A DNA stretch of 43,652 bases from Thermodesulfobacteriota bacterium (GTDB taxonomy: Bacteria; Desulfobacterota; Desulfobulbia; Desulfobulbales; DAOVYS01): assembly GCA_034659175.1 (NCBI GenBank), contig JAYEGR010000049.1:1-43652 (forward strand), written 5' to 3'. Below the pieces are notes generated by a model. The model was not told the DNA's origin, ran no database searches, and saw only the letters and a program-made list of their open reading frames with translations. Positions 3,820-43,652 of the stretch are shown in pieces. Each line of letters opens with the position of its first letter. Position 1 is the stretch's first letter. The position numbers were made by a program, and so were the translations under genes.

Positions 3820-3922
3820 AGACCCGCTTTGGGTGCTAACAAACGGTGGACACAGCCCACCCTGCGATCGGTTACTAATTCTCCGGCATTGTGCCTGAGT
3901 AATTCCAAAAGGATTTAAAAAA

Positions 3923-7594: not shown

Positions 7595-7602
7595 TAAAAC
7601 GT

Positions 7603-7756
7603 GTAAATATTCGGCAGCACTCCACAGGAAGGCGATCAGGCTGCCCAGCATACCTAAGTATAGCTGATCAGCCTGCTCAACCTCCCTGTGAAGCGCTGCC
7701 AAACATTTACAGTTTGGTAGTTTTAGCTATTTTCCGGCATCAAGCCGAATATTTAC
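7603..7756 (+). mobile_element. MITE-like element, family A, copy A1 (short-loop variant)
   Basis: 13-bp terminal inverted repeats GTAAATATTCGGC / GCCGAATATTTAC. Perfect 8-bp direct repeat TAAAACGT at 7595-7602 and 7757-7764. Long internal imperfect hairpin. Near-identical copies at 11784-11960 and 12804-13002. Confidence 0.85.
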
Positions 7757-7791
7757 TAAAACGTCTTGAAATATTCAATGGACAATGTTGG

Positions 7792-11223: not shown

Positions 11224-11249
11224 TTATTGGGATAAAAAATCCTTATTTA
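11224..11249 (-). promoter_or_regulatory. possible sigma28 (FliA)-type promoter upstream of the FliL-like gene
   Basis: The minus strand reads TAAA-N14-CCCAATAA. The remembered consensus is TAAA-N15-GCCGATAA, so the -10 block matches 6 of 8 positions. Confidence 0.25.
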
Positions 11250-11280
11250 GTACCTTTAAAAAATTTCGGTTTATCTGGGT
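11249..11280 (-). promoter_or_regulatory. conserved 32-nt leader motif (copy 1) upstream of the FliL-like gene
   Basis: AGTACCTTTAAAAAATTTCGGTTTATCTGGGT matches 23377-23408 at 27 of 32 positions by manual alignment. Both copies lie upstream of FliL-family genes on the minus strand. Confidence 0.5.
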
Positions 11281-11316
11281 AAGCGCCATGGGGATATGCA
11301 CTCGGGTGGATACGGA

Positions 11317-11783: not shown

Positions 11784-11960
11784 ATGCCTATACGGCTTGA
11801 TGCCGGGAAATAGCTAACGCCACCAAATTTGAAATTGTAAATGTTTGGCAGCGCTTCACAGGGAGGTGAGCAGGCTGGTCAGCAGATAAGCGCAGACTTC
11901 GATACTTTGGTATGCTGGGCAGCCTGATCGCCTTCCTGTGGAGTGCTGCTGAATATTTAC
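11784..11960 (-). mobile_element. MITE-like element, family A, copy A2 (long-loop variant, degenerate left end)
   Basis: Reverse-complement match to A1 across the body. Intact right end GCTGAATATTTAC. The left end has decayed (ATGCCTATACGGC). T-rich 8-mers flank it (TTTTTTTG / TTTTTTTT). It carries the same ~19-nt apical insertion (AGATAAGCGCAGACTTCGA) as A3. Confidence 0.75.
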
Positions 11961-12793: not shown

Positions 12794-12803
12794 GCCTGAC
12801 TTT

Positions 12804-13002
12804 GTAAATATTCGGCTTTATGCCGGAAAACAGCTAGAACCACCAAATTGTAAATGTTTGGCAGCGCTTCACAGGGAGGTGAGCAGGCTGATCAGCAGAT
12901 AAGCGCAGACTTCGATACTTTGGTATGCTGGGCAGCCTGATCGCCTTCCTGTGGAGTGCTGCCGAATATTTACCTTCCTGTGGAGTGTTGTCGAATATTT
13001 AC
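12804..13002 (-). mobile_element. MITE-like element, family A, copy A3 (long-loop variant with duplicated end)
   Basis: TIRs GTAAATATTCGGC / GCCGAATATTTAC. The last 29 nt are tandemly repeated (CTTCCTGTGGAGTGTTGTCGAATATTTAC). Perfect 8-bp direct repeat CTGACTTT at 12796-12803 and 13003-13010. Confidence 0.88.
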
Positions 13003-13008
13003 CTGACT

Positions 13009-13908
13009 TTATAGATTGAACAGCCCCTGCCAGAAAAATTTAATATTACCGTCCGCCTTGAGGTCCGGATCTTCCCGGCTGATCCGGTCCGAGAGTTTTT
13101 TGAATTTTTTGCTTGATGCTGAATCAGGGTATAACTCCACCACAAGGCGTTGTTTCTTAACTGCTAATAGTAATTTATTATCATAAGGAATAAATCCAAG
13201 AAAATCCAGGGAAAGTGTATTTAAAAAACGATCAGCCACCAGGCTTAACTGACGAAAAACCGCCAGAGCTTCTTTTTCTGAACGGACGAGGTTTATCAGT
13301 ATCCGGAATTTTTTAACGTCATGACGGGTGGACAGTACTTTGATCATTGCATAGGCATCTGTTAGAGATGTAGGCTCCGGAGACAAGAGGATGATGCGCT
13401 CCTGGGCCGCCAGAGTAAAATAGATCACGTTGTTGTTGATGCCGGCTGCAGTATCAATGAGCAGGATGTCGATTTTGCTCCCCAGAGACTCCATTTCACC
13501 AAGAAAGTAGAGTTTCTGACTTTCCGTCAGATTTGACATTTCCATTATCCCGGAACTGGCCGGAAGTATAAAAATTCCTCCAGGGCCTTCAACCAGGACA
13601 TCCGGCAGGGCCTTTTCGCCGATAAAGACATGATGCAGGTTGAATCTGGGCGTAAGACCAAGAAGGACATCGACATTTGCCAGGTTCAGGTCTGCGTCAA
13701 GGACAAGCACCTTTTTCCCTGCTTTACTGAGGGAATAGGCCAGATTCGTGACAACATTGGTCTTCCCGACGCCCCCCTTTCCGCTGGTTACGCAGATCAC
13801 CCTTGGCATGGAACCGCTTTCTGTCAGTTTATCATAAATAGTTGAACCCTGAACAGTTGCAAGCTGTGTTTGAGTCATCATCTTTTCCAATGTCTCTGCT
13901 TGGTTCAT
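13009..13908 (-). CDS. flhG: flagellar number regulator FlhG (MinD/ParA-type ATPase)
   Basis: Deviant Walker A SGKGGVGKTN, 299 aa, positioned directly after flhF. Confidence 0.9.
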   Translation of the reverse strand: MNQAETLEKMMTQTQLATVQGSTIYDKLTESGSMPRVICVTSGKGGVGKTNVVTNLAYSLSKAGKKVLVLDADLNLANVDVLLGLTPRFNLHHVFIGEKALPDVLVEGPGGIFILPASSGIMEMSNLTESQKLYFLGEMESLGSKIDILLIDTAAGINNNVIYFTLAAQERIILLSPEPTSLTDAYAMIKVLSTRHDVKKFRILINLVRSEKEALAVFRQLSLVADRFLNTLSLDFLGFIPYDNKLLLAVKKQRLVVELYPDSASSKKFKKLSDRISREDPDLKADGNIKFFWQGLFNL

Positions 13909-13938
13909 TCTGTTTCCTTTGATTTTAAATAGTTGTTT

Positions 13939-14054
13939 AGGTAGAAGGCCGAAGGTATAAGGTAGAAGGTTGAAGGTATAAGGGCAAACGTCTGTTAACC
14001 TTCAGCCTAAATCCCTTCAACCTTCTACCTTCTACCTAAAACCTTCAACCTAAA
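13939..14054. repeat. two inverted arrays of heptanucleotide repeats (AGGNNNA x7, 10-nt spacer, complementary ACCTNNN-type units x8)
   Basis: Read directly: AGGTAGA AGGCCGA AGGTATA AGGTAGA AGGTTGA AGGTATA AGGGCAA, then acgtctgtta, then ACCTTCA GCCTAAA TCCCTTCA ACCTTCT ACCTTCT ACCTAAA ACCTTCA ACCTAAA. The region fills the flhF-flhG intergenic space. Confidence 0.85.
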
Positions 14055-14062
14055 AATTTTCA

Positions 14063-15229
14063 TCATGAGGCCATGGCCGTGTTCCAGCCCTGTCCGAAGA
14101 GTTTGTTGATAAAGTCATACGAGGCCATTTGAAAGTCTTCCGGAACCCGTTGGCCCGTGCATACACACGAAACCGGCAGGCATGATGAAACAACCTGCTG
14201 ACAGAGTGCGGCATATGCCCTGGTTTCATCCAGTTTAGTCAGTATGATTCCATTTACTGAAAGCGGACTGTAAGCATTAGTCATACTGGCCAGATCCTCT
14301 TTTTTAGTAGTGGCGCTTATGACCAGGTATGGGTTAATGGAATTAAGAGGCTCAAACCAGCTTTCAAGTTCGGGAACGTGCCTGCTGTCATATGGACTTT
14401 TCCCTGCTGTATCGATTATGATCAGGTCTTTGTCACTGTGTTTTGCAACAGCTTTTACCAGGTCCTGTTTTCTTAAAACAATTTCGCATGGTAATTTCAT
14501 GATTTGTGAATAGGTTCGGAGTTGGTCCGTGGCGCCTATCCTGTAACAATCCATTGAAATAAGCGCCACTTTGCGTCTTTCCCGCAGACTGAACCATGCT
14601 GCAATTTTGGCGACGGTTGTGGTCTTGCCCACACCTGTTGCCCCAACAAGGCATATTAACGTTTGCGGTTTTTCCTTTACCTGATGCGTCAAGGGAATGA
14701 CCTGAACCTGTTTGATGAGTTCATTTCGCCACCTTGTCACTTCTTTTGGGTCTGGTTTATCGGGTATTGTTTCGGTCGGTACGTGGGGAATCTGTTTTTT
14801 GTTTTCAGGGGGAGATGTTGCTTTTGAAGTAATATGCGTATTTAAAAGAGCGGAGAAACGTTTCTTAAGATCCAGGGCCTCCAAACTTGCAGGCTGTTGT
14901 TTTATTATTGGGATCTCGCCGGGAATCAATATGGCCTTTTCAGGAGTTAAGGAGTTTGATGCCTTTTTGATAATATCATTTTTAGTCCGCTTTTTCGGTG
15001 CGTAACCGTATTCCGTAACAGGAATCTCAACCGGTTGCCGCTCCTTGCCGTCATAATCTATGGCAGCCACAACTTCGACAAGGGACGAGTTGTGATTTTT
15101 CTTTTTACCGTTACGTCTTGATGGGGAAATGTTCCTCGTTGTGAGGATAAGAGCGTCATTTCCCATTTCATTTTTGATCATGGCAAGGGCCGTCCTGGTG
15201 TCCGGGGCCTCAAATCTTTTGATCCTCAT
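14063..15229 (-). CDS. flhF: flagellar biosynthesis GTPase FlhF (SRP family)
   Basis: 388 aa. G1 LVGATGVGKTTT, DTAG, TKLDE motifs. Lies between flhA and flhG. Confidence 0.92.
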   Translation of the reverse strand: MRIKRFEAPDTRTALAMIKNEMGNDALILTTRNISPSRRNGKKKNHNSSLVEVVAAIDYDGKERQPVEIPVTEYGYAPKKRTKNDIIKKASNSLTPEKAILIPGEIPIIKQQPASLEALDLKKRFSALLNTHITSKATSPPENKKQIPHVPTETIPDKPDPKEVTRWRNELIKQVQVIPLTHQVKEKPQTLICLVGATGVGKTTTVAKIAAWFSLRERRKVALISMDCYRIGATDQLRTYSQIMKLPCEIVLRKQDLVKAVAKHSDKDLIIIDTAGKSPYDSRHVPELESWFEPLNSINPYLVISATTKKEDLASMTNAYSPLSVNGIILTKLDETRAYAALCQQVVSSCLPVSCVCTGQRVPEDFQMASYDFINKLFGQGWNTAMAS

Positions 15230-15330: not shown

Positions 15331-17436
15331 CTACCCCTTCGGGTTAACTTCAATGGTGCCCAGTGACCGGATTTTCGCCTGTGTTGTCAGCTCGCTGTGC
15401 GAGATTACCGTGACCTGTGGCATGAACTGTTTAATAAAGCGCTGCAGATGCATGCGTATGACAGGCGAACAGATCACAAGGGGCGGATAGCCCTCATTGG
15501 ATATTTTTTCAACCGATGTCCCGATTGAGTCAAGAATTTGTGTTGCCAGATTCGGTTCAATGGACAGGTAGGCGCCATGATCGCTTTTTCGGATTGATTC
15601 ACGGATAAGATCCTCGACTTTGGTGGCCAGTGTCAGTACGGAGAGGTTTCCTTCCTCGTCAATAAAGGCGCTGACAATTGATCTGGCCAGTTTCTGCCGC
15701 ACGTACTCGGTCAGGGTGTCCGGGTCCTTACTTATATATGCAAAATCAGCCAGTGTCTCGCAGATTGTGAGAAGATCGCGGATCGAGACCCGCTCCCGTA
15801 AAAGATTCTGGAGAACTTTCTGCACTCCGCCCAGGCTAAGCAGGTTCGGAACCAGTTCTTCAATCACCTTTGGATGGGTTTTGGCAAGATTATCAAGGAG
15901 TTTCTGTGTGTCCTGACGACCGAGCAGTTCATCTGCATGTGCCCTGAGCAGCTCCGTCATGTGAGTGGCCACAACGGTTGACGGATCGACCACGGTATAG
16001 CCGGCCACCTGGGCCTCATCCTTCTTGTCTTCAGTAATCCATATGGCTGGAAGCCCGAATGCCGGCTCTTTTGTCGGAATTCCATCAATTTTGCGTTTAG
16101 CTGCTCCGGAATCCATGGCAAGGAGATATTCCATCATCACATCTCCGCGGGTGATTTCGATTCCCTTGAGCAAAAGGACGTATTCATCCGGTTTGATCTG
16201 GAGATTGTCACGTACGTGAAGGGGCGGAATGATCAGACCCATTTCCATTGCAAACTGCCTTCTAATGGCCCTGATTCGTTCAAGGAGGTCACCTTCCTTG
16301 GTTTCGTCGACCAATGGAATAAGAGCGTAGCCCACCTCGAGTTGCAGTGTGTCCAGAGGCAGAAGGCTCTCAACCGTTTCCGGCGCTCCAGGGGGAGGTT
16401 CGGTTTCTTTTATTTCTTCCTCCTTTTCTTCTGTTTTCCTCTTGGCTTCATTTTGAAAGGCGAAGAATGCCAGGCCTCCCATTAGCGTTGCCAGTATGAG
16501 AAACGGGACGTGAGGAAGGCCGGGTATCAATCCGAACAGGAAGATAATCCCTGATGTAACGGCCAGGGCCTGCGGCTGCAACCCGAACTGTTTGGCGAAT
16601 TCCGATCCCATGCTCTTGTCCGAGGCTGCGCGGCTCACGATTATACCGGCCGAGGTGGAGATGATAAGGGCCGGAATCTGGGATACCAGGCCGTCTCCAA
16701 TAGTCAGGAGGGTGTAAGTCTCGGCTGCCGTGCCGAATGGCATGCCCTGTTTTAAGACACCGATTGCCCATCCGCCCATAATATTGATCACAATAATTAC
16801 TATGGAGGCAATTGCCTCGCCGCGTACAAATTTGGCTGCACCGTCCATGGCCCCGTAAAATTCGGCCTGCCTGGAGATCTCCATCCTGCGATTTTTCGCG
16901 CCCTGCTCATCGATCAGTCCGGCATTCAAGTCCGCGTCAATGGCCATCTGCTTGCCCGGCATTGCATCAAGAGTGAAGCGGGCCGCCACTTCCGCGATTC
17001 GTCCCGAACCTTTTGTGATGACAATAAAATTGATCAGCACAAGAATCGCGAAAATGATAATGCCCACACCGTAGTCTCCTCCTATGACAAAATTGCCGAA
17101 TGAATTGATCACCTGGCCCACCGCGCCTTTACCTTCATGTCCGTGCAGGAGGATCAGCCGAGTGGACGCGATGTTCAAAGACAGCCTGAACAGTGTCGAG
17201 ATCAGGAGCACTGAAGGAAATGAGGAGAAATCAAGTGGCCGGGTGTTGTACATGGACATGAGCAGGATGACCAGTCCTATAGTGATGTTCAGAGAAAGAA
17301 GCAGGTCCAGGATAACTGTGGGCAGTGGAATAATCATGATTATGAGTATTCCGACAACACCGACAGCCACAATGAGACTCGTGGACTCCATGTTAAAGGT
17401 ACTCACTCCTGGTATTGTCCCAGTATTGTCAGCCAT
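15331..17436 (-). CDS. flhA: flagellar type III export protein FlhA
   Basis: 701 aa. N-terminal polytopic TM region, the FHIPEP-like segment, and a large cytoplasmic C-domain. Confidence 0.96.
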   Translation of the reverse strand: MADNTGTIPGVSTFNMESTSLIVAVGVVGILIIMIIPLPTVILDLLLSLNITIGLVILLMSMYNTRPLDFSSFPSVLLISTLFRLSLNIASTRLILLHGHEGKGAVGQVINSFGNFVIGGDYGVGIIIFAILVLINFIVITKGSGRIAEVAARFTLDAMPGKQMAIDADLNAGLIDEQGAKNRRMEISRQAEFYGAMDGAAKFVRGEAIASIVIIVINIMGGWAIGVLKQGMPFGTAAETYTLLTIGDGLVSQIPALIISTSAGIIVSRAASDKSMGSEFAKQFGLQPQALAVTSGIIFLFGLIPGLPHVPFLILATLMGGLAFFAFQNEAKRKTEEKEEEIKETEPPPGAPETVESLLPLDTLQLEVGYALIPLVDETKEGDLLERIRAIRRQFAMEMGLIIPPLHVRDNLQIKPDEYVLLLKGIEITRGDVMMEYLLAMDSGAAKRKIDGIPTKEPAFGLPAIWITEDKKDEAQVAGYTVVDPSTVVATHMTELLRAHADELLGRQDTQKLLDNLAKTHPKVIEELVPNLLSLGGVQKVLQNLLRERVSIRDLLTICETLADFAYISKDPDTLTEYVRQKLARSIVSAFIDEEGNLSVLTLATKVEDLIRESIRKSDHGAYLSIEPNLATQILDSIGTSVEKISNEGYPPLVICSPVIRMHLQRFIKQFMPQVTVISHSELTTQAKIRSLGTIEVNPKG

Positions 17437-17537
17437 CTTTTTGCTTCCGGTTGTTTTGGTGGGAACAGCCCACCCTGCAAAATTCTTTTATGTTATTCGT
17501 TTTTCTACCGTAACGGTCTGAAATTACGACTTGCCTT

Positions 17538-17669
17538 GTAAACGTTCACAGGTGCTGTAGCTGTGCGTGATCAGGGCAATCAGCTATAGTCAACCTATGC
17601 TGGTTGCCCTGATCACGCGCAGGTAAGCGAGCCTGCGAGACTCCGGATGCAGTGCCTGTGGACGTTTGC
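17538..17669 (+). mobile_element. palindromic MITE-like element, family B, copy B1
   Basis: Outer arms GTAAACGTTCACAGGTGC / GCAGTGCCTGTGGACGTTTGC. Inner arms GTGCGTGATCAGGGC / GCCCTGATCACGCGC around a CTATAGTCAACCTATG centre. Asymmetric module GCAGGTAAGCGAGCCTGCGAGACTCCGG. Related copies at 33456-33587 and 40745-40894. Confidence 0.8.
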
Positions 17670-17671
17670 AA

Positions 17672-18742
17672 TCATGCGCTTTTTTGTTTGAGGCTGTAGA
17701 CATATGCAAGCACTTCCGCCACTGCCTCGAAAAGGTTTTCGGGTATGGAATCGTCTATGTCCACGGTCTTGAAAAGGGCCTGGGCCAGAGGCATGTCTTC
17801 CACGATCGGAATGGAGTGCTCGGCAGCGACTTCTCTAATACGTCTTGCGATAACACCTGCGCCTTTGGCAACCACCACAGGCGCACTCATTGTAAGGCTG
17901 TCATACCGAAGTGCGACTGCCAGTCGGACCGGGTTTGTAATAATTACATCTGCGGACGGCACTTCCTCCATCATTCTTCTTCTGGCCATTTGCATCTGGA
18001 TCGACCTGATTCGTCCTTTAACCTGTGGGTCACCCTCTGTCATCTTGGCTTCTTCCTTGACCTCCTGCTTGGTCATTTTCATTTTGTTCGTGAACTGCCA
18101 TTTCTGAAACGCATAATCCAAGGCTGCAAGGATAGCTATGATAATTGCGGCCTTTAAGAAAATCCAGAAAGAGGTCTTTACTACGAATACAAAAATCGGA
18201 AAAGGCTCCTGATCCATAAGAGGCAGGAGCGAGGGCATGGATTTTTTTACTTCGTAAAAAGCCACTGCGCCGATAAATATTATTTTTAAAATGGATTTGA
18301 TCAAATGGGCAAGCGTCTGCATGGAGAATTTGTTTTGAACGCCCTTGATCGGGTCTATTTTTTTGAGGTCGGGCTTAATCTTTTCCCCTGTGAAAATTAT
18401 CCCGATCTGAGCGTAATTGGCCGCAAGCGCGGTCACCAGGACCACGGCCATAACGGGCGCCACGATCATGGTGGAATAAAGCATGCTTTCGCGGGTTATT
18501 GTGACCATGTTGTCCTTGATGATTTCAATGGTATGAAGATTCCCGAGATAATGCCTTAGCAGCATGTATAAACGCTCCAGCATGAAGTCGCCTAAAAAAT
18601 ACAAGGTCAAAAGGCCGGCAAGAAGCACTGCGGCAGACGGGATTTCCATACTTTTTGCCACATCGCCTTTTTTCCTGGCGTCGGCAAGGCGCCGCGCGGT
18701 AGGTTGTTCGGTTTTTTCCTGTCCGGTACTCTCTTCAGCCAT
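17672..18742 (-). CDS. flhB: flagellar type III export protein FlhB
   Basis: 356 aa. N-terminal EKTEQPT, four TM helices, and the NPVRL variant of the NPTH autocleavage region (ITNPVRLAVAL). Confidence 0.95.
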   Translation of the reverse strand: MAEESTGQEKTEQPTARRLADARKKGDVAKSMEIPSAAVLLAGLLTLYFLGDFMLERLYMLLRHYLGNLHTIEIIKDNMVTITRESMLYSTMIVAPVMAVVLVTALAANYAQIGIIFTGEKIKPDLKKIDPIKGVQNKFSMQTLAHLIKSILKIIFIGAVAFYEVKKSMPSLLPLMDQEPFPIFVFVVKTSFWIFLKAAIIIAILAALDYAFQKWQFTNKMKMTKQEVKEEAKMTEGDPQVKGRIRSIQMQMARRRMMEEVPSADVIITNPVRLAVALRYDSLTMSAPVVVAKGAGVIARRIREVAAEHSIPIVEDMPLAQALFKTVDIDDSIPENLFEAVAEVLAYVYSLKQKSA

Positions 18743-23376: not shown

Positions 23377-23408
23377 AGTACCTTTAAGGAATTCCTGTTT
23401 ATCCGGGT
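23377..23408 (-). promoter_or_regulatory. conserved 32-nt leader motif (copy 2) in the fliL 5' leader
   Basis: AGTACCTTTAAGGAATTCCTGTTTATCCGGGT matches 11249-11280 at 27 of 32 positions. It lies between the sigma54 promoter (23480-23494) and the fliL ATG (23325). Confidence 0.5.
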
Positions 23409-23779: not shown

Positions 23780-24694
23780 ATGTATCTACAACAGCTACTG
23801 ACTATTATTGGCAAAGAAAGAGAAAAGGAACTCCCGACATGCATTACGGATCTGGTTGAAAACGGCCTTTCGCAGGACAGGTTCACTGATGAAGAGTTTA
23901 GACCGGGCCGCCATGAAATAACACTCTTTCTTGCTGCCTGGTGCCGTCGAATCGGCCTGGGGGAGGAGTATTACCGCGATTGGTTGATTGATTACAGCCT
24001 TGATGTTCTGGGGGGCATTTCCACTAGTTCTCCCTCTCAGATTCGTCACAGCACCAAGTCAACCATAAAGTACGTCCATCGTTCCGATGTTGACTTTTCC
24101 TGCCATTGTCAACGCAATATTTTCAAAGCCGTCTGTGGCCCCGACTGCCCACTCTATTGGGAGATGGAGACTCTTCACAAACAGGAACTCGATATAAAGC
24201 GTAAACGGCTTGAAGAGGACAAACGGATCAAGGAAGAGGGCATGCCTGTTCTGGAAAAAGTGAGCGTTAAAGAGCAACATAAGGAGAAATTTGAGAAGGC
24301 GGTCGAGCAGATTCAAAAATATCTTAAAGAAAGCCGAACAAAAAAAGAAATTGTCGATCTTCTCAAGGAAAAAGGATACAAGACCCGTACCGGCCGCGAA
24401 TGGACTACCTCAGTTTTACAAATTTTAATAAAGGAAAAAGGATGGGGTGCGAAACGGCTTAAAAAATCGATTAAATTGACCGTTACACAGCAATATAAGG
24501 AACAATTTGAGGAGGCGGTCAAGCATATTCAAAGATATCTTAAACAAGGCCGAACAAAAAAAGAAATTGCCGACCTTCTTAATGAAAAAGGATACAAGAC
24601 CAGTACAGGCCGTGAATGGAAAGCCAATGGCATCAACATAGCCATGGAAACAGGCGAGTTGAAAGGTAACCGTTCAAAACGTATAACCAAATGA
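23780..24694 (+). CDS. hypothetical protein: Cys-containing N-terminal domain, coiled coil, two tandem recombinase-like HTH repeats
   Basis: AAGGAG RBS at 23764-23769 and a TTGACA box at 23726-23731. A 72-aa (216-nt) internal duplication holds two copies of K..FE.AV..IQ.YLK..RTKKEI.DLL.EKGYKT.TGREW. The N-terminal ~130 aa ends in C-H-C...C-x3-C. Confidence 0.7.
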   Translation: MYLQQLLTIIGKEREKELPTCITDLVENGLSQDRFTDEEFRPGRHEITLFLAAWCRRIGLGEEYYRDWLIDYSLDVLGGISTSSPSQIRHSTKSTIKYVHRSDVDFSCHCQRNIFKAVCGPDCPLYWEMETLHKQELDIKRKRLEEDKRIKEEGMPVLEKVSVKEQHKEKFEKAVEQIQKYLKESRTKKEIVDLLKEKGYKTRTGREWTTSVLQILIKEKGWGAKRLKKSIKLTVTQQYKEQFEEAVKHIQRYLKQGRTKKEIADLLNEKGYKTSTGREWKANGINIAMETGELKGNRSKRITK

Positions 24695-30848: not shown

Positions 30849-30966
30849 AAAATTATCTGTTGTCCATTAAAAAACATTGGTAACCGGTCAGAAAGGGGTC
30901 AGTAATTTAGCGATGTGGACGAACCCTAACCCAGATAAACTGGAATTCTTTAAAGGTCCTGGATAA

Positions 30967-31021
30967 GTACCTTAGAAAATATTTTCTGCCAGAAACGCGC
31001 AGAAAATATTTTCTAAGGTAC
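30967..31021. promoter_or_regulatory. perfect 23-bp-arm palindrome carrying two AGAAAATATTTTCT sites
   Basis: GTACCTTAGAAAATATTTTCTGC (30967-30989), a 9-nt spacer, then GCAGAAAATATTTTCTAAGGTAC (30999-31021). Each arm contains the self-complementary 14-mer AGAAAATATTTTCT. Confidence 0.7.
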
Positions 31022-31542
31022 TAAGCGCTAACAGTTGTTTAAGTGGATTACCCTCAGTAATCCGCGACAAACCAGAAAAATTAACCTTGCTCCTCCTGAT
31101 TTGAAACAGGCTGATTTTTTTGATAAAAATCGACCACGAGAAATACCGGAGAGCCAATATGATTGCTGCAATACTCAGTTGCACCGGTATATCAAAGGGT
31201 TGAGCAATTATTTATGCCATACTTTTTCATTTTTCAAAAGAAATTTTTTTTAACCGTTCAGAGGGGCACCCTTTGAACGGTTACGTTCAAGCTGTCCCGA
31301 GTCTGTCGGCGTAAAGAAAGCTCTTGGCAAGCGCCCTTAGTATTGATATTGTGCAATACAAAAAAGGTAATCGTTCCCCTGCGTCTCATTAATTCCTGCA
31401 TTAGTTTCTGTTTGCTTACAGCATTTAAATTTCAAAAATTGATAATTGATCTCAAACAGGAAGCCCTAACCCGGAGGGCGCTATGTTCTCCGGGTTAGGC
31501 GAATAGTCGGTTTAAGTTTGTATTTTTAAAGGAGCAAGGAAC

Positions 31543-33459
31543 ATGGCAAAAACAGTAACAGAAAAAATATTAAAAAATCACCTGGTTGAGGGTCGTATGG
31601 AAAAAGGTGAAGAGATCGGCATCCGCATTGATCAGACCCTGACCCAGGATGCCACAGGCACTATGGCCTATCTTGAATTTGAAGCAATCTCCATTCCAAG
31701 AGTTCAGACCGAGCTGTCGGTCTCTTATGTGGACCATAATCTGGTTCAGTCTGATTTCAGGAATGGTGACGACCATCGGTTCCTTCAATCCGTTGCCCGG
31801 AAATATGGTCTCTACTTTTCTCCCCCCGGGAACGGCATTTCCCACCAGATCCACCTGGAAAGATTCGGCAGGCCCGGCAGGACTCTCTTAGGTTCCGACA
31901 GTCATACTCCCACAGGCGGAGGTCTCGGCATGCTTGCAATAGGCGCCGGAGGGCTCGATGTGGCCATGGCAATGGCCGGAAAGCCATTCTTCATGATAAT
32001 GCCGAAGGTCTATGGCGTTAAACTGACCGGCCGATTGCCGGAATGGGTGTCAGCCCGGGACGTGCTTCTCGAACTGCTCAGGCAACTCTCCGTCAAGGGC
32101 GGTGTAGGATATGTCATGGAATATTTCGGCCCAGGCGTTAAAGAGTTATCTGTAACAGACCGGGCGGCCATAACCAACTTCGGTGCTGAACTGGGTGCCA
32201 CCACTTCGGTGTTTCCGTCGGACGAGAACACTAAAAAATTTCTGGAAAGTCAGGGACGGGGCGGCCTGTGGGAAGAGCTTGCAGCTGATGAAGGCGCCTG
32301 TTATGACAAGGTGATTGAGATTGATATGTCCACACTGGAACCGCTTATCGCCTGTCCCTCATCTCCGGATAACGTGGTAAAGGTCCGGGAAGTGGCCGGT
32401 AAGCCCGTGTTTCAGGTGCTGGTGGGCTCATGCTCCAATTCATCGTTGCGTGATCTGATGCTTGTCTCCAAGGCGCTGGATGGTAAACAGGTACACAATG
32501 ACGTGAGTTTCGAAATCAACCCGGGCAGCCGCCAGGTACTGGAAAACCTTACGGCCCAGGGATACATGCTCTCTCTGATCAAGGCCGGCGCCCGCATCCA
32601 TCAGGCAGGCTGCCTGGGATGTATTGGAATGGGACAGGCGCCGGCCACGGATACAATTTCACTAAGGACCTTTCCCCGGAATTTTCCCGGCCGCAGCGGG
32701 ACCAAAGACGACCGGGTTTATTTATGCAGTCCTGAAACCGCGGTTGCGTCGGCGCTCAAGGGGTGCATCACGGATCCGCGTGATCTGGGTGTATACCCTG
32801 AATTCAGTCTGCCTGAGAAGTATCTGCCCGGTGATCAACGGATCGAACCGCCGAAATCAGAGGGTGAAAGTACCATGATCATCCGTGGACCGAATATAGC
32901 GTCCTTCCCTGAGTTTGATCCTGTCCCCGAAACATGGGAAGGCACAGTGCTGTTAAAGACAGCGGATAATATTACTACTGATCACATCATGCCGGCAGGC
33001 GCTCAGATACTTCCGCTCAGGAGCAATATTCCAGCTATCAGTGAATTTGTATTTAACTCCATTGACCGGGAATTTGTTCAGCGGGCAAAGAGAGCAAGCA
33101 GCGGTATGGTTGTGGGAGGTGAGAACTATGGTCAGGGATCATCCAGGGAGCATGCCGCACTGGCACCGCGTTATCTTGGAGTGCGCGTAAAACTGGTCAA
33201 GAGCTTTGCACGCATTCATAAGGCAAATCTGATCAATTTCGGCATCCTGCCGTTTACCTTTACATCGGCTGAAGACTACGACATAATCGAGCAGGGTGCA
33301 AAGGCGGTTATTCCGGATCTAAGAAAAAATCTTGAATCCGGGGCAGAGGTCTTTGTGTTGGATGTAGCCGGCAATAAAATTAAAATCAGCCTGGATATCT
33401 CCACACGGCATCGTGAGATACTACTGGCAGGCGGTCTCCTGAACTGGGCAAGACAGTAA
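31543..33459 (+). CDS. aconitate hydratase (short ~640-aa aconitase family member)
   Basis: 638 aa. Aconitase catalytic and swivel domains with Fe-S Cys contexts (VGSCSNSS, GCLGCIGMG). GGAGCAAGG RBS region upstream. Confidence 0.9.
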   Translation: MAKTVTEKILKNHLVEGRMEKGEEIGIRIDQTLTQDATGTMAYLEFEAISIPRVQTELSVSYVDHNLVQSDFRNGDDHRFLQSVARKYGLYFSPPGNGISHQIHLERFGRPGRTLLGSDSHTPTGGGLGMLAIGAGGLDVAMAMAGKPFFMIMPKVYGVKLTGRLPEWVSARDVLLELLRQLSVKGGVGYVMEYFGPGVKELSVTDRAAITNFGAELGATTSVFPSDENTKKFLESQGRGGLWEELAADEGACYDKVIEIDMSTLEPLIACPSSPDNVVKVREVAGKPVFQVLVGSCSNSSLRDLMLVSKALDGKQVHNDVSFEINPGSRQVLENLTAQGYMLSLIKAGARIHQAGCLGCIGMGQAPATDTISLRTFPRNFPGRSGTKDDRVYLCSPETAVASALKGCITDPRDLGVYPEFSLPEKYLPGDQRIEPPKSEGESTMIIRGPNIASFPEFDPVPETWEGTVLLKTADNITTDHIMPAGAQILPLRSNIPAISEFVFNSIDREFVQRAKRASSGMVVGGENYGQGSSREHAALAPRYLGVRVKLVKSFARIHKANLINFGILPFTFTSAEDYDIIEQGAKAVIPDLRKNLESGAEVFVLDVAGNKIKISLDISTRHREILLAGGLLNWARQ

Positions 33460-33587
33460 AGGGCCACAGTCGGCGCATCCGGAGTCTCGCAGGCTCGCTT
33501 ACCTGCACGTGATCAGGGCGACCGGTATAGGTTACTATAACCGGGTCGCCCTGATCACGCACACCTGCACCGACTGTGGCCCTTTAC
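33456..33587 (-). mobile_element. palindromic MITE-like element, family B, copy B2
   Basis: Perfect 18-bp termini GTAAAGGGCCACAGTCGG / CCGACTGTGGCCCTTTAC. Inner GTGATCAGGGCGACC...GGTCGCCCTGATCAC hairpin. The CCGGAGTCTCGCAGGCTCGCTTACCTGC module is inverted relative to B1. The aconitase TAA stop (33457-33459) lies inside the terminus. Confidence 0.85.
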
Positions 33588-33658: not shown

Positions 33659-33822
33659 TTAGGGCTCGCACAAAAATAACTTCACATTTTCATGCGCCGA
33701 TCCATCCCGCATGGCTGCGTTGCTCGTCGGTTAAATAGCCCTGCTATTCGCCCTTCTCGCGCCTTGCCATGCGGGCGCCTCAACACCTGAAAATATAAAT
33801 TTATTTTTGGGCGAACCCTTAA
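33659..33822. mobile_element. third palindromic repeat element (family E) with ~55-nt imperfect inverted termini
   Basis: The left end TTAGGGCTCGCACAAAAATAACTTCACATTTTCA...CCCGCATGGC pairs with the right end GCCATGCGGG...TGAAAATATAAATTTATTTTTGGGCGAACCCTTAA. A 20-nt copy of the terminus (TTAGGGCTCGCTCAAAAATA) occurs at 11156-11175. Confidence 0.6.
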
Positions 33823-34033
33823 ATCAAGGGGATAAATTTGGTTTATAGTGTGTACAGAAAAAATTGGTCGTGTATCCGGCTGATTTTGCCTGGAAAGGTG
33901 ATAGGTTGGGCAGAAATTGATTTGTACAGTAAAAAAAATTGTATTTTAGGTGGTGTGGAGAGAGGGGTTATTGTCTTTGGTAATTTGTTGGTATTACTGG
34001 AATTTTTCTGGATTTCGAGCTTTTTTAGGGGTT

Positions 34034-37818: not shown

Positions 37819-38085
37819 AATTCCTTTTTTTTAGTACCTTAGAAAATATTATCGGAAAGTACTTATACCATGATTGCAGTTACATTTTTCGTAATTTTAT
37901 TCCGGATTTACGGAAAAATAGAGATGTTTTGATTATGTTAGTATGTGGCGAATATTAGCCTAACAAGTTGCAATTGCGGAAACAAATCAAGCGCATAGGG
38001 AAAATGGAATGAATTTTGCAGTTTAACTGTATCAATGGACGATTTTTATGTATTGTGAATAAAATAGCGACAACAATTCTGATTA

Positions 38086-40744: not shown

Positions 40745-40894
40745 GTAATCGTTCACAGGTGCCCCAGATGTGCACCCTGAAGGGCATAAACTCCAGCAGG
40801 CCGGCGAACTATAGTAAACCTATGTGAGTCGGACTGATCGCGTGCAGGTAAGCGAGACTGCGAGACTCCGGGTGGGGTGCCTGTGAACGATTCC
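40745..40894 (+). mobile_element. palindromic MITE-like element, family B, copy B3 (degenerate inner arm)
   Basis: Termini GTAATCGTTCACAGGTGCCCC / GGGGTGCCTGTGAACGATTCC. Central CTATAGTAAACCTATG. Module GCAGGTAAGCGAGACTGCGAGACTCCGG in the same orientation as B1. Confidence 0.8.
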
Positions 40895-41630
40895 GGCCCT
40901 TCAAGTGACGCGAATGTGCTGAAGCCCTCTGACAGATTTTCAACAGTGATTGCAAACCAGCGGATGTCCTGGTTGCCTTCAAGTTTGCTCCCAATGGCTT
41001 TTGCCAATTTTTCTACTGAAAGGTAATTATCCCGTGATGGATTGGGAGATTTTTCAGGCCAACACAGATTGTGTGACGTGACCTTCTCGACCATCTCGAT
41101 CAATTCTTCAATCCAGATAAAACGTTTAAAGCGGAGACGAATTTCCGCAACCCCCCAGTGGCCCAGGGATCTAGGCAGGCCTTCACTGATCTGGGCTGGG
41201 ACGGGAGGTGAGATGGGTACCTGAATTTCCAGGGTCAGGTCGTCCTCGCCGTCAAGGGATCCATGCATCCTGCAAGTGTATACGGAGATGCCGACCGTAT
41301 TTGGAAAGGTGTTTTTTTTTTCAGGAAGTAAGGGAATTCAATCTCAATATGGGCGGCTTCGGCTTTTAGTTTTGTCTTCATTTCCTCAAGGATCAACCGA
41401 AAACTCCTTAAGTTTATATGGCCGTGAAACCGGTTCAGTATTTCAATAAACCGGCTCATATGTGTGCCTTTGAAGAGGTGGGGCAGATTTACATACATGT
41501 TGACCGTGCCAACGGTCCTCTGAAGCTTGTTTTCCTTGTCCAGAACAGAGATCGGATAAGAAATTCCTTTTATCCCGACCTTTTTAATGTTGATTCGGCG
41601 GTCATCGGGCTGGTTTTGAATATCTTTCAT
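40895..41630 (-). pseudogene. folE2: GTP cyclohydrolase FolE2/MptA family (type IB), frameshifted and 3'-disrupted
   Basis: The N-terminal ORF (41235..41630) has FolE2 hallmarks (INIKKVGIKGISYPISV...KGTHMSRFIEIL). The frame breaks at an A10 run (T10 on the plus strand, 41312-41321). The continuation (NTFPNTVGISVYTCRMHGSLDGEDDLTLEIQVP...IWIEELI) is in the +1 frame. That ORF then reads through repeat B3. Confidence 0.65.
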
Positions 41631-41646
41631 AAGGTACTTATCTACA

Positions 41647-43416: not shown

Positions 43417-43506
43417 GCCGACTAATCTCCCTGAGTTACTGAGTTACGATTAATGCTTTTGTAAAAGTCAATGAGATGGTTAAACTTTATGCCTTTATCC
43501 CCCCCC

Positions 43507-43583
43507 CCTTCAGCCTTCAGCCTTCAACCTTCAGCCTTTAGCCTTCAACCTTCAGCCTTTAGCCTTCAACCTTCAGTCTTCAC
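43507..43583. repeat. tandem heptanucleotide array, 11 units of CCTTCAG/CCTTCAA/CCTTTAG, preceded by a C10 homopolymer
   Basis: Read directly: CCTTCAG CCTTCAG CCTTCAA CCTTCAG CCTTTAG CCTTCAA CCTTCAG CCTTTAG CCTTCAA CCTTCAG TCTTCAC. C10 at 43499-43508. Upstream (minus sense) of the dksA-like gene. Confidence 0.9.
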
Positions 43584-43652
43584 TGCAGGTGTATGTACCG
43601 CTTTTGCCGCCTTTTTTGGAGAGGAGCCTTATATTGCTGATTACCATGCCTT

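Follow-up and report, generated by a model that had tools for sequence, protein, structure and literature searches.

Probable decayed IS66-type foldback elements with a nested 24-nt micro-insertion in a Desulfobulbales contig

The 43,652-nt contig JAYEGR010000049.1 (assembly GCA_034659175.1), analyzed over its whole length and referred to here as the window, comes from an uncultured Thermodesulfobacteriota bacterium of cold-seep or marine sediment, in the Desulfobulbales, the order that includes the cable bacteria. Placed between housekeeping genes of this chromosomal window are three palindromic repeats, family B, which are probably decayed copies of a non-autonomous IS66-type foldback MITE (miniature inverted-repeat transposable element) carrying a nested 24-nt micro-insertion that resembles the small dispersed repeats (SDR) of cyanobacteria. 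Uncultured marine members of the sulfate-reducing Desulfobulbales are rich in the superfamily to which family B belongs. As mobile DNA without coding content, the host palindromes have ends of the IS66 type and 8-bp duplications; the 24-nt unit is a discrete dispersed unit, with fixed ends, that has moved into many unrelated sequences beside CA.

Results

Layout of the family B copies

Copy B1 (17538-17669, + strand) is a foldback palindrome made up of a host of ~108 nt and a 24-nt insertion; the strand that carries the inserted module, here called the top strand, is the + strand. B2 (33456-33587, - strand) lies opposite in orientation to B1 and B3, and its outer arms are divergent yet perfectly complementary. 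B3 (40745-40894, + strand) is a relative from another subfamily, which clusters with loci L020, L058, L065 and L077 (the prefix L marks loci of our wider sample) and has mutated terminal bases: it starts with GTAATCG and finishes with GATTCC.

A first-pass annotation, made from the sequence alone, had reported the three copies at exactly these positions and described a shared layout around a conserved 28-nt module. The module stands, being identical in B1, B2 and B3 save for C/A at one position (chance expectation, 0 matches), whereas other parts of that layout do not: B1 does not end in TTTAC (its right end is ...GTTTGC, with a T·G wobble at position 2), the left inner arm of B3 lacks GTGATCAGGGC, and the centres are unequal, that of B2 being shorter by 1 nt. 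In place of GTGATCAGGGC, the left inner arm of B3 carries ACCCTGAAGGGCATAAACTCCAG CAGGCCGGCGAA, and its right inner arm is GACTGATCGCG; ACCCTGAAGGGCATAAACTCCAG (40774-40796, + strand) is a second type of small insert, common to L058 and L065. The outer arm is CGTTCACAGGTGC in B1 and B3 versus GGGCCACAGTCGG in B2, and in every copy the opposite arm fits its own partner. For B2 the annotation had proposed a perfect 18-bp outer stem, and the arm is indeed an exact 18-nt complement (or 22 nt at 95%). When the module strand is folded as RNA, B1 reaches -89.1 kcal/mol (z = -12.0), B2 -96.3 kcal/mol (z = -12.1), and B3 -63.9 kcal/mol (z = -4.1).

IS66-type ends and target duplications in intact relatives

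Intact relatives of family B open with a terminal repeat at the outer left, GTA(A/C)CCGTTCAC, followed by ~35 nt of spacer and then by a ~107-nt palindrome (GTAAGCGTTCACAGG...CCTGTGAACGCTTAC); their ends, as seen in metagenome copies, are GTAAGCG...CGCTTAC. On the top strand this gives a conserved 5' extension of ~48 nt, CCGTTCACGCCCATTCGGAACAAAAAGGTTGCACAATCTGCGTCCT, which opens with a third copy of the terminal repeat. If the palindrome alone is taken as the unit, no target duplications are found, and 19 of 25 copies show zero matching bases. With the composite as the unit, 7 of 12 copies are flanked by exact 8-bp duplications (AAATTAAT, TCAAAACT, GCAATTCT, CTAAAAAT, AAATAATT, ATACATTT and GGAAGATT), and a second, partly overlapping search returned 8 such composites, again with exact 8-bp duplications. 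These 8-mer targets are AT-rich and lie beside stop codons.

The same build—palindrome, spacer, and third terminal-repeat copy—is present in family A, a second group of repeats in the window. Composite A1 (7603-7756, - strand) has the exact 8-bp duplication TAAAACGT (7595-7602 and 7757-7764), and composite A3 (12805-13002, + strand) the exact 8-bp duplication CTGACTTT (12797-12804 and 13003-13010); the left extension of A2 (11789-11960, + strand) is truncated. A2 and A3 bracket fliA in the flagellar operon.

Hallmarks of the IS66 family are an inverted repeat (IR) that starts with GTAAGCG and direct repeats of 8 bp (PMC11946415); a published example is the IR of ISPsk01, GTAAGCGTCCGGCGAACTCACCTT (PMC12888890). 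The call of an IS66-type element is made because the GTAAGCG termini and 8-bp duplications of the relatives match these published hallmarks. The first-pass annotation had also pointed to IS66; that lead holds for the ends and duplications of the intact relatives, but not for the module to which it had been attached, which is a secondary insertion. Among the first 114 loci, clustering of open reading frames (ORFs) revealed no recurrent transposase, with only housekeeping and sensor families recurring, and in the 157 sampled genome and metagenome loci no inverted terminal-repeat pair 0.6-4.5 kb apart had a target duplication.

The B copies of the window itself are decayed fossils rather than active elements, and have lost the left extension and the duplications. 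B1 is truncated on its left side, since just 8 nt (CTTGCCTT, 17530-17537, + strand) of its subfamily's left extension remain; many metagenome contigs match from this remnant and continue upstream as ...CCTGCCGGATCGCAAACCC. Metagenome mapping indicates that B1 and B2 are absent from related strains, and metagenome depth over the element is 100-500x that of the flanks. The B2 arm variant is near single-copy in four metagenomes, and therefore does not represent a large subfamily. Some metagenome contigs contain a short form, in which the B1 interior (17552-17654; window 17551-17655 region) is swapped for CTACAGCA and the outer stem alone is left as a small hairpin.

Compensatory change and strand bias in the hairpin arms

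The changes between the arms of the host are compensatory, and the arms co-evolve with a strand bias. Changes were counted on a 48-pair structure over an alignment of 29 family B hosts, the rows of which are not fully independent (some orthologous loci are included), and compared with 500 shuffles. Standard pairs are formed in 98.3% of stem cells; 12 stem pairs have changed on both sides, against 1.6 ± 1.2 in the shuffles, none of which reaches 12; 10 of the 22 outer-stem pairs are compensated; and pairing falls to 24-44% when the 3' partners are slid. Most compensated changes are found at a single locus, such as T>A/A>T in L121, G>C/C>G in L139 and C>A/G>T in L155, or the arms GCAAG/CTTGC in L123, CTAAG/CTTAG in L124 and GTAGG/CCTAC in L130; B2 is compensated at six pairs. 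These changes, mostly private to one locus, are independent events.

The first-pass annotation had left a choice between compensatory covariation that preserves a hairpin and distinct subfamilies with their own terminal inverted repeats. The counts above bear out the former, while the latter does not account for the near single-copy B2 variant or for the outer-left repeat, which does not covary: covariation joins the internal left arm of the palindrome with the right end (L139, L155 and L123). Since the outer-left terminal repeat lies outside the covariation, it is the hairpin itself that covaries, which terminal repeats that are simply inherited would not explain.

The strand bias is pronounced. 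The top strand contains 166 G·T cells versus 5 A·C cells, and the bottom strand would therefore pair in ~86% of cells. Sporadic one-sided transitions show the same imbalance (34 G·T versus 5 A·C, in roughly 19 versus 5 columns), with both C>T and A>G contributing. Nearly all copies retain six wobble positions and a tandem G·A, as do family A and cluster 0.

The 24-nt unit as a separate insertion

As a natural unit the module measures 24 nt (GGTAAGCGAGCCTGCGAGACTCCG), not 28 nt. In B1 it lies in the right arm (17622-17645, + strand), with the pair T25-A88 on one side and the A·G/G·A internal loop on the other, adjoining the conserved tandem G·A loop of the host; B2 carries it at an identical site (33480-33503, - strand), and B3 has the variant GGTAAGCGAGACTGCGAGACTCCG (40847-40870, + strand). 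Most B hosts are empty: in the 29-host alignment the module appears as one clean 24-column gap in 27 hosts and is present in B1 and B2 only, and a metagenome scan with the B inner arms recovered ~30 family B palindromes without it. The empty site in these relatives reads GCGCA|GATGC. In family A, A2 and A3 carry a 17-nt variant, GATAAGCGCAGACTTCG (11885-11901 and 12898-12914, respectively), and A1 lacks exactly those bases.

The module is also widely dispersed beyond these hosts. A census of its 23-nt core in one genome per species returned at least 114 loci, and the carriers are nearly all Desulfobulbaceae, Desulfocapsaceae and other Thermodesulfobacteriota metagenome-assembled genomes, from at least 38 assemblies (the 80 listed loci come from ~38); Desulfocapsa sulfexigens (L080) is one of the carriers. 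Among the matches listed, 118 exact cores fall into 59 context clusters, with at least 7 clearly different repeat families; depending on the clustering, ~46-59 contexts are unrelated to one another, and across them the flanks are unrelated up to the same two boundary bases. Filled and empty homologous pairs in at least 6 unrelated contexts always differ by the same 24 nt (25-27 nt in variants), with no target duplication. The bases before the module are strongly constrained: of 49 independent contexts, 41 carry a C at -2 and 45 carry an A at -1. Variants of 16-29 nt share 8-nt ends (GGTAAGCG...GAGACTCC, that is, GGTAAGCG and (G/A)AGACTCC) around a variable middle of 0-13 nt. Tandem arrays with a 24-nt period occur at L017, L030, L042, L060 and L082, and modules nested in inverted orientation inside another copy at L081 and L087. 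In four metagenomes, depth peaks over the module at 300-500x the flanks, and at the B2 locus the peak covers the module only.

The asymmetry of the module is thus that of a secondary insertion in a symmetric palindrome, because its boundaries are exact in unrelated contexts and empty hosts exist. The first-pass view of a conserved asymmetric module at the core of the element is not sustained, given that the module is missing from 27 of the 29 aligned hosts and present in dozens of unrelated repeats. At least two further insert families of ~23-25 nt are found in the same host palindromes, ACCCCAAGGGCACTTCCGTTGGGCG (L028, L039, L058 and L077) and the ACCCTGAAGGGCATAAACTCCAG insert of B3; micro-insertion is therefore not confined to one sequence.

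Other accounts of the module were tried, and none gained support. Targeting of hairpin loops was rejected, 19 of 46 sites lying in a predicted stack versus 44% of all positions, and a role of paired modules as MITE ends is not supported, inverted pairs lacking 8-bp duplications. As for the module being an IS66 IR, viral contigs were scanned for IRs of IS66 type that share its second block; the 120 matches were all chance-like, and none had an inverted partner.

Gene context and transcription

B1 is placed after the stop codon of flhB and before the start codon of flhA, antisense to both; the terminal GTAA of B2 supplies the TAA stop of an aconitase-like ORF (31543-33459); and B3 is found upstream of glyS, again in antisense orientation. 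Related strains have overlapping flhB and flhA genes, TTC being all that separates window positions 17436 and 17677. This genome has a 240-nt insertion there (17437-17676), which includes B1 and gives flhB a new end and flhA a new leader; the related strains lack this spacer.

Across the sample, 51 of the 61 long ORFs next to an element run antisense to its top strand, and cases with a neighbour on both sides are antisense/antisense in 15 instances versus sense/sense in 1. Within the window, top-strand orientation flips whenever gene direction flips: A1, A3, B1, B2 and B3, for which both nearest long ORFs are co-directional, are antisense without exception (5/5), and the two nearest ORFs of A2 differ in direction. 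For 14 of the 25 B copies, the gene upstream has its stop codon 0-6 nt from the right end of the element or inside it, as the TAA of GTAA. In GTAA-type hosts the module is always on the host top strand. Over all contexts, module orientation relative to genes shows no bias (15 sense versus 9 antisense), and the orientation bias is a property of GTAA-type hosts and not of the module.

No sign was seen of the discrete RNA species that the first-pass annotation had envisaged. Rfam gave no match to the window at the gathering score, and for B1 at E<=10 only miRNA-like hairpin matches far below threshold; a scan of the window for tRNA and tmRNA returned none, and scans of B1 and one intact relative for sigma-70 promoters and intrinsic terminators found none at the element. 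An outward promoter picked out by eye (TTGTTC-N18-TACAAT) was dropped, as it falls outside the scanner criteria, and the extension, inspected by eye, misfits sigma-54 spacing. Metatranscriptome contigs hold fragments of the element embedded in longer transcripts, with neither strand information nor ends, and the well-pairing strand is the one absent from the neighbouring mRNAs.

Other repeats in the window

Just downstream of B2, at 33659-33823, lies a palindromic repeat of ~165 nt (TTAGGGCTCGCACAAAAATAA...TTATTTTTGGGCGAACCCTTAA), which in four sediment metagenomes has a depth of 10,000-110,000 versus ~12-100 for its flanks, far above that of family B or the module. Tandem arrays of the heptamers AGGTAGA/AGGTTGA and their complement CCTTCAR occupy 13936-14065, between flhF and flhG, where they form an inverted pair of arrays, and 43500-43586, near the end of the window. 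A small, GC-rich, REP-like hairpin, GGTGGGAACAGCCCACCCTGC, is found at 3845-3865 and at 17458-17478, the latter copy inside the 240-nt flhB-flhA insertion beside B1, and also at L004, L037 and other Desulfobulbales loci. The ORF at 23780-24694 has weak similarity to serine-recombinase-type domains (Pfam Recombinase and HTH_62) and contains an internal direct repeat of 148 nt (24257-24404 and 24473-24620; 86% identical). A perfect 24-bp inverted repeat with a 9-nt spacer, AGTACCTTAGAAAATATTTTCTGC (30966-31022), resembles an operator-type site and may be a candidate for protein binding; intergenic half-site copies, AGTACCTTnnAAA, are found at 37831-37853, 41618-41642, 11242-11283 and 23377-23408.

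Discussion

If family B is a non-autonomous IS66-type MITE, an IS66-type DDE transposase would move it in trans, and the top strand would fold while single-stranded at some step, whether in an intermediate of transposition or replication, or else in an antisense transcript, with selection possibly keeping that strand foldable. Templated correction from arm to arm probably contributes as well, and would be the best account of the perfect, wobble-free, near single-copy arms of B2. One B lineage received the 24-nt unit in its right arm, 3' of a CA. The antisense bias, finally, may be due to polar effects that the stronger top-strand hairpin would have in operon mRNAs, and against which selection would act.

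Several observations weigh against this reading. The B termini in the window are degenerate (GTAAACG, GTAAAGG and GTAATCG instead of GTAAGCG), and B1-B3 show no target-site duplication, as the first-pass annotation had also found, even at 7/8 matches and with any left boundary within 160 nt; in both respects they are unlike IS66 elements and MITEs, and the IS66-type assignment of B1-B3 therefore depends on homology to their relatives. The search for a cognate transposase that had been suggested at first pass came back empty, with no transposase or full-length insertion sequence with matching ends in ~0.9 Mb from 157 genome and metagenome loci, sampled as 8 kb around the repeats; an autonomous partner of the kind that an IS66 MITE would have was not found in these 8-kb loci. 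A DDE transposase acts on double-stranded ends, which does not obviously explain a strand-specific hairpin constraint. Several of the conserved wobbles may instead be direct-repeat protein-binding motifs, GGTGC and GCAGATG occurring on both arms in the same strand, and the shared ancestry of some alignment rows tempers the covariation counts.

Alternatively, the palindromes could be structured non-coding, antisense or cis-regulatory RNA genes, with the top strand transcribed antisense to the operon and the arms showing classical RNA covariation. Strong covariation with near-complete pairing, the tolerance of G·U and avoidance of A·C on one strand only, an orientation that follows local transcription and not replication (with several flips within 43 kb), and the presence of element pieces in metatranscriptome contigs are all in its favor. 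Yet the well-pairing strand is outside the neighbouring mRNAs, no sigma-70 promoter or intrinsic terminator consensus lies at or beside the element, and matches to Rfam are limited to sub-threshold miRNA hairpins; the RNA contigs are strandless fragments of longer transcripts, and 8-bp duplications, hundreds-fold copy number and absence in sister strains are signs of mobile DNA. On balance, RNA genes seem an unlikely explanation. Greater weight, though still that of a minority possibility, attaches to the idea that arm complementarity arises without selection, through templated correction between the arms (template switching or repair on an extruded hairpin), by which a mutation is either erased or copied across. 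B2 fits this idea well, as six compensated pairs and a wobble-free outer stem of 18-22 bp in a near single-copy variant are hard to obtain by independent mutation pairs under weak selection, and many other compensated changes are private to single loci. Correction should nevertheless make asymmetries vanish, but families A, B and cluster 0 alike retain six G·T positions and the tandem G·A in nearly all copies, and the excess of one-sided changes towards G·T on one strand (34 versus 5) points to strand-specific selection or strongly strand-biased mutation.

Two further alternatives concern the mover and the module. Family B might consist of REPIN-like doublets that travel as single-stranded hairpins, with a tyrosine (HUH/Y1) transposase of the REP-associated kind (RAYT) as their mover, and the 24-nt unit might be a REP-like singlet mobilized by the same enzyme. 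This would account for the strand-specific hairpin constraint and for entry of the 24-nt unit 3' of a fixed CA without target duplication; elements of the IS200/IS605 type insert 3' of a fixed short motif, likewise without target duplication. Host ends are GTAG in L130, L115 and L132, and the module with its preceding CA forms a small hairpin, CAGG-N8-CCTG. The stem of that hairpin is only 4 bp, however, the module sites are not enriched in predicted loops, no recurrent Y1 or RAYT gene was seen near the elements in the ORF clustering of the first 114 loci, and exact 8-bp duplications such as those of the hosts are not made by HUH single-strand transposition; we consider this reading very unlikely. 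Least probable of all is that the module is an integral functional site, either protein-binding or a solo IS66 IR, spread by shared ancestry or recombination and not by mobility of its own. The module does start with GTAAGCG, as IS66 IRs and the host's own ends do, it is loosely similar to the ISPsk01 IR GTAAGCGTCCGGCGAACTCACCTT (PMC12888890), and in GTAA-type hosts it keeps to the top strand. But its flanks are unrelated up to the same two bases in 46-59 contexts, most B hosts lack it, its inverted pairs have no 8-bp duplications, and the viral contigs yielded no more than chance matches to IS66-like IRs that share its second block.

Compared with known systems, family B is most readily placed among the MITEs of the IS66 family, being small, non-coding, intergenic and high in copy number, with relatives that have the GTAAGCG termini and exact 8-bp duplications of that family (PMC11946415). 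It differs in being a near full-length palindrome with a third, internal terminal-repeat copy, and in a strand-biased, hairpin-specific covariation of the arms that transposase binding does not require. The hosts represent a new IS66-type MITE, unusual for its near-complete foldback, its internal third repeat and its strand-biased compensation. REPIN and REP elements, with their RAYT genes (PMC3116915; PMC3337134; PMC3733652), are also intergenic high-copy hairpins that form inverted doublets, show compensatory stem evolution, and have a 5' tetranucleotide tag. In family B this tag is GTAA (GTAG in few copies), not GTAG/CGTC, the hosts have 8-bp duplications, and no RAYT gene was seen in the clustered loci. 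The BIMEs of E. coli, the BOX elements of pneumococcus and the Correia elements of Neisseria are built of interchangeable short modules, vary in the number of central modules, lie just after genes, and can form long hairpins in mRNA. Unlike these, the shared module described here moves between unrelated hosts with exact boundaries, and its host has an IS66-type 8-bp duplication instead of the TA duplication of Correia elements or no duplication at all.

Among known repeats, the 24-nt unit itself appears to resemble most closely the SDR of cyanobacteria, which Elhai and colleagues (2008, Genome Res 18:1484) are said to have described as ~20-27 nt long, dispersed or in tandem, nested, and present or absent in homologous sequence, with no duplication and no known enzyme. 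By that description, the likeness extends to unit size, dispersal, tandem copies, nesting, presence/absence and lack of target duplication. The 24-nt unit differs in occurring in Thermodesulfobacteriota, in its apparently unrelated sequence, in its conserved 8-nt ends around a variable middle, and in its strong preference for CA| targets. To our knowledge, mobile units this small have been argued only for cyanobacteria, and no mechanism is known to have been described for them since 2008. Cyanobacterial SDR are cited in PMC3116915 and PMC2884548. Our literature search returned no paper with the core sequence and none linking Desulfobulbaceae to MITE or REP elements, and a prior description of the unit was not found.

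It is conceivable, with a likelihood that we would put somewhat short of even, that the 24-nt unit is truly mobile through an undescribed, enzyme-driven mechanism that is both strand-specific and site-specific, inserting 3' of CA without duplication, inserting into itself, and forming tandem arrays. It would then have spread across the order as a passenger of unrelated foldback repeats, jumping from one to another, and the host hairpins might be kept foldable on one strand as a single-stranded substrate.

The analysis separates two layers, an ordinary IS66-type foldback MITE and a 24-nt unit that behaves as mobile DNA. The second of these offers another, apparently unrelated example of a tiny mobile repeat, whose sharp CA| target and exact ends, together with copies in the thousands across at least 38 assemblies, provide a handle in the hunt for an enzyme; if the unit is truly mobile, very small mobile repeats would extend beyond the cyanobacteria. 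Strand-specific compensation in transposon DNA, moreover, means that covariation and G·U tolerance are insufficient to call an RNA gene. Such repeats, with depth spikes of 100-500x, break metagenome assemblies. Finally, repeats that sit 0-6 nt past stop codons, antisense, and inside operons such as flhB-flhA-flhF-flhG-fliA may affect operon expression in the Desulfobulbales.

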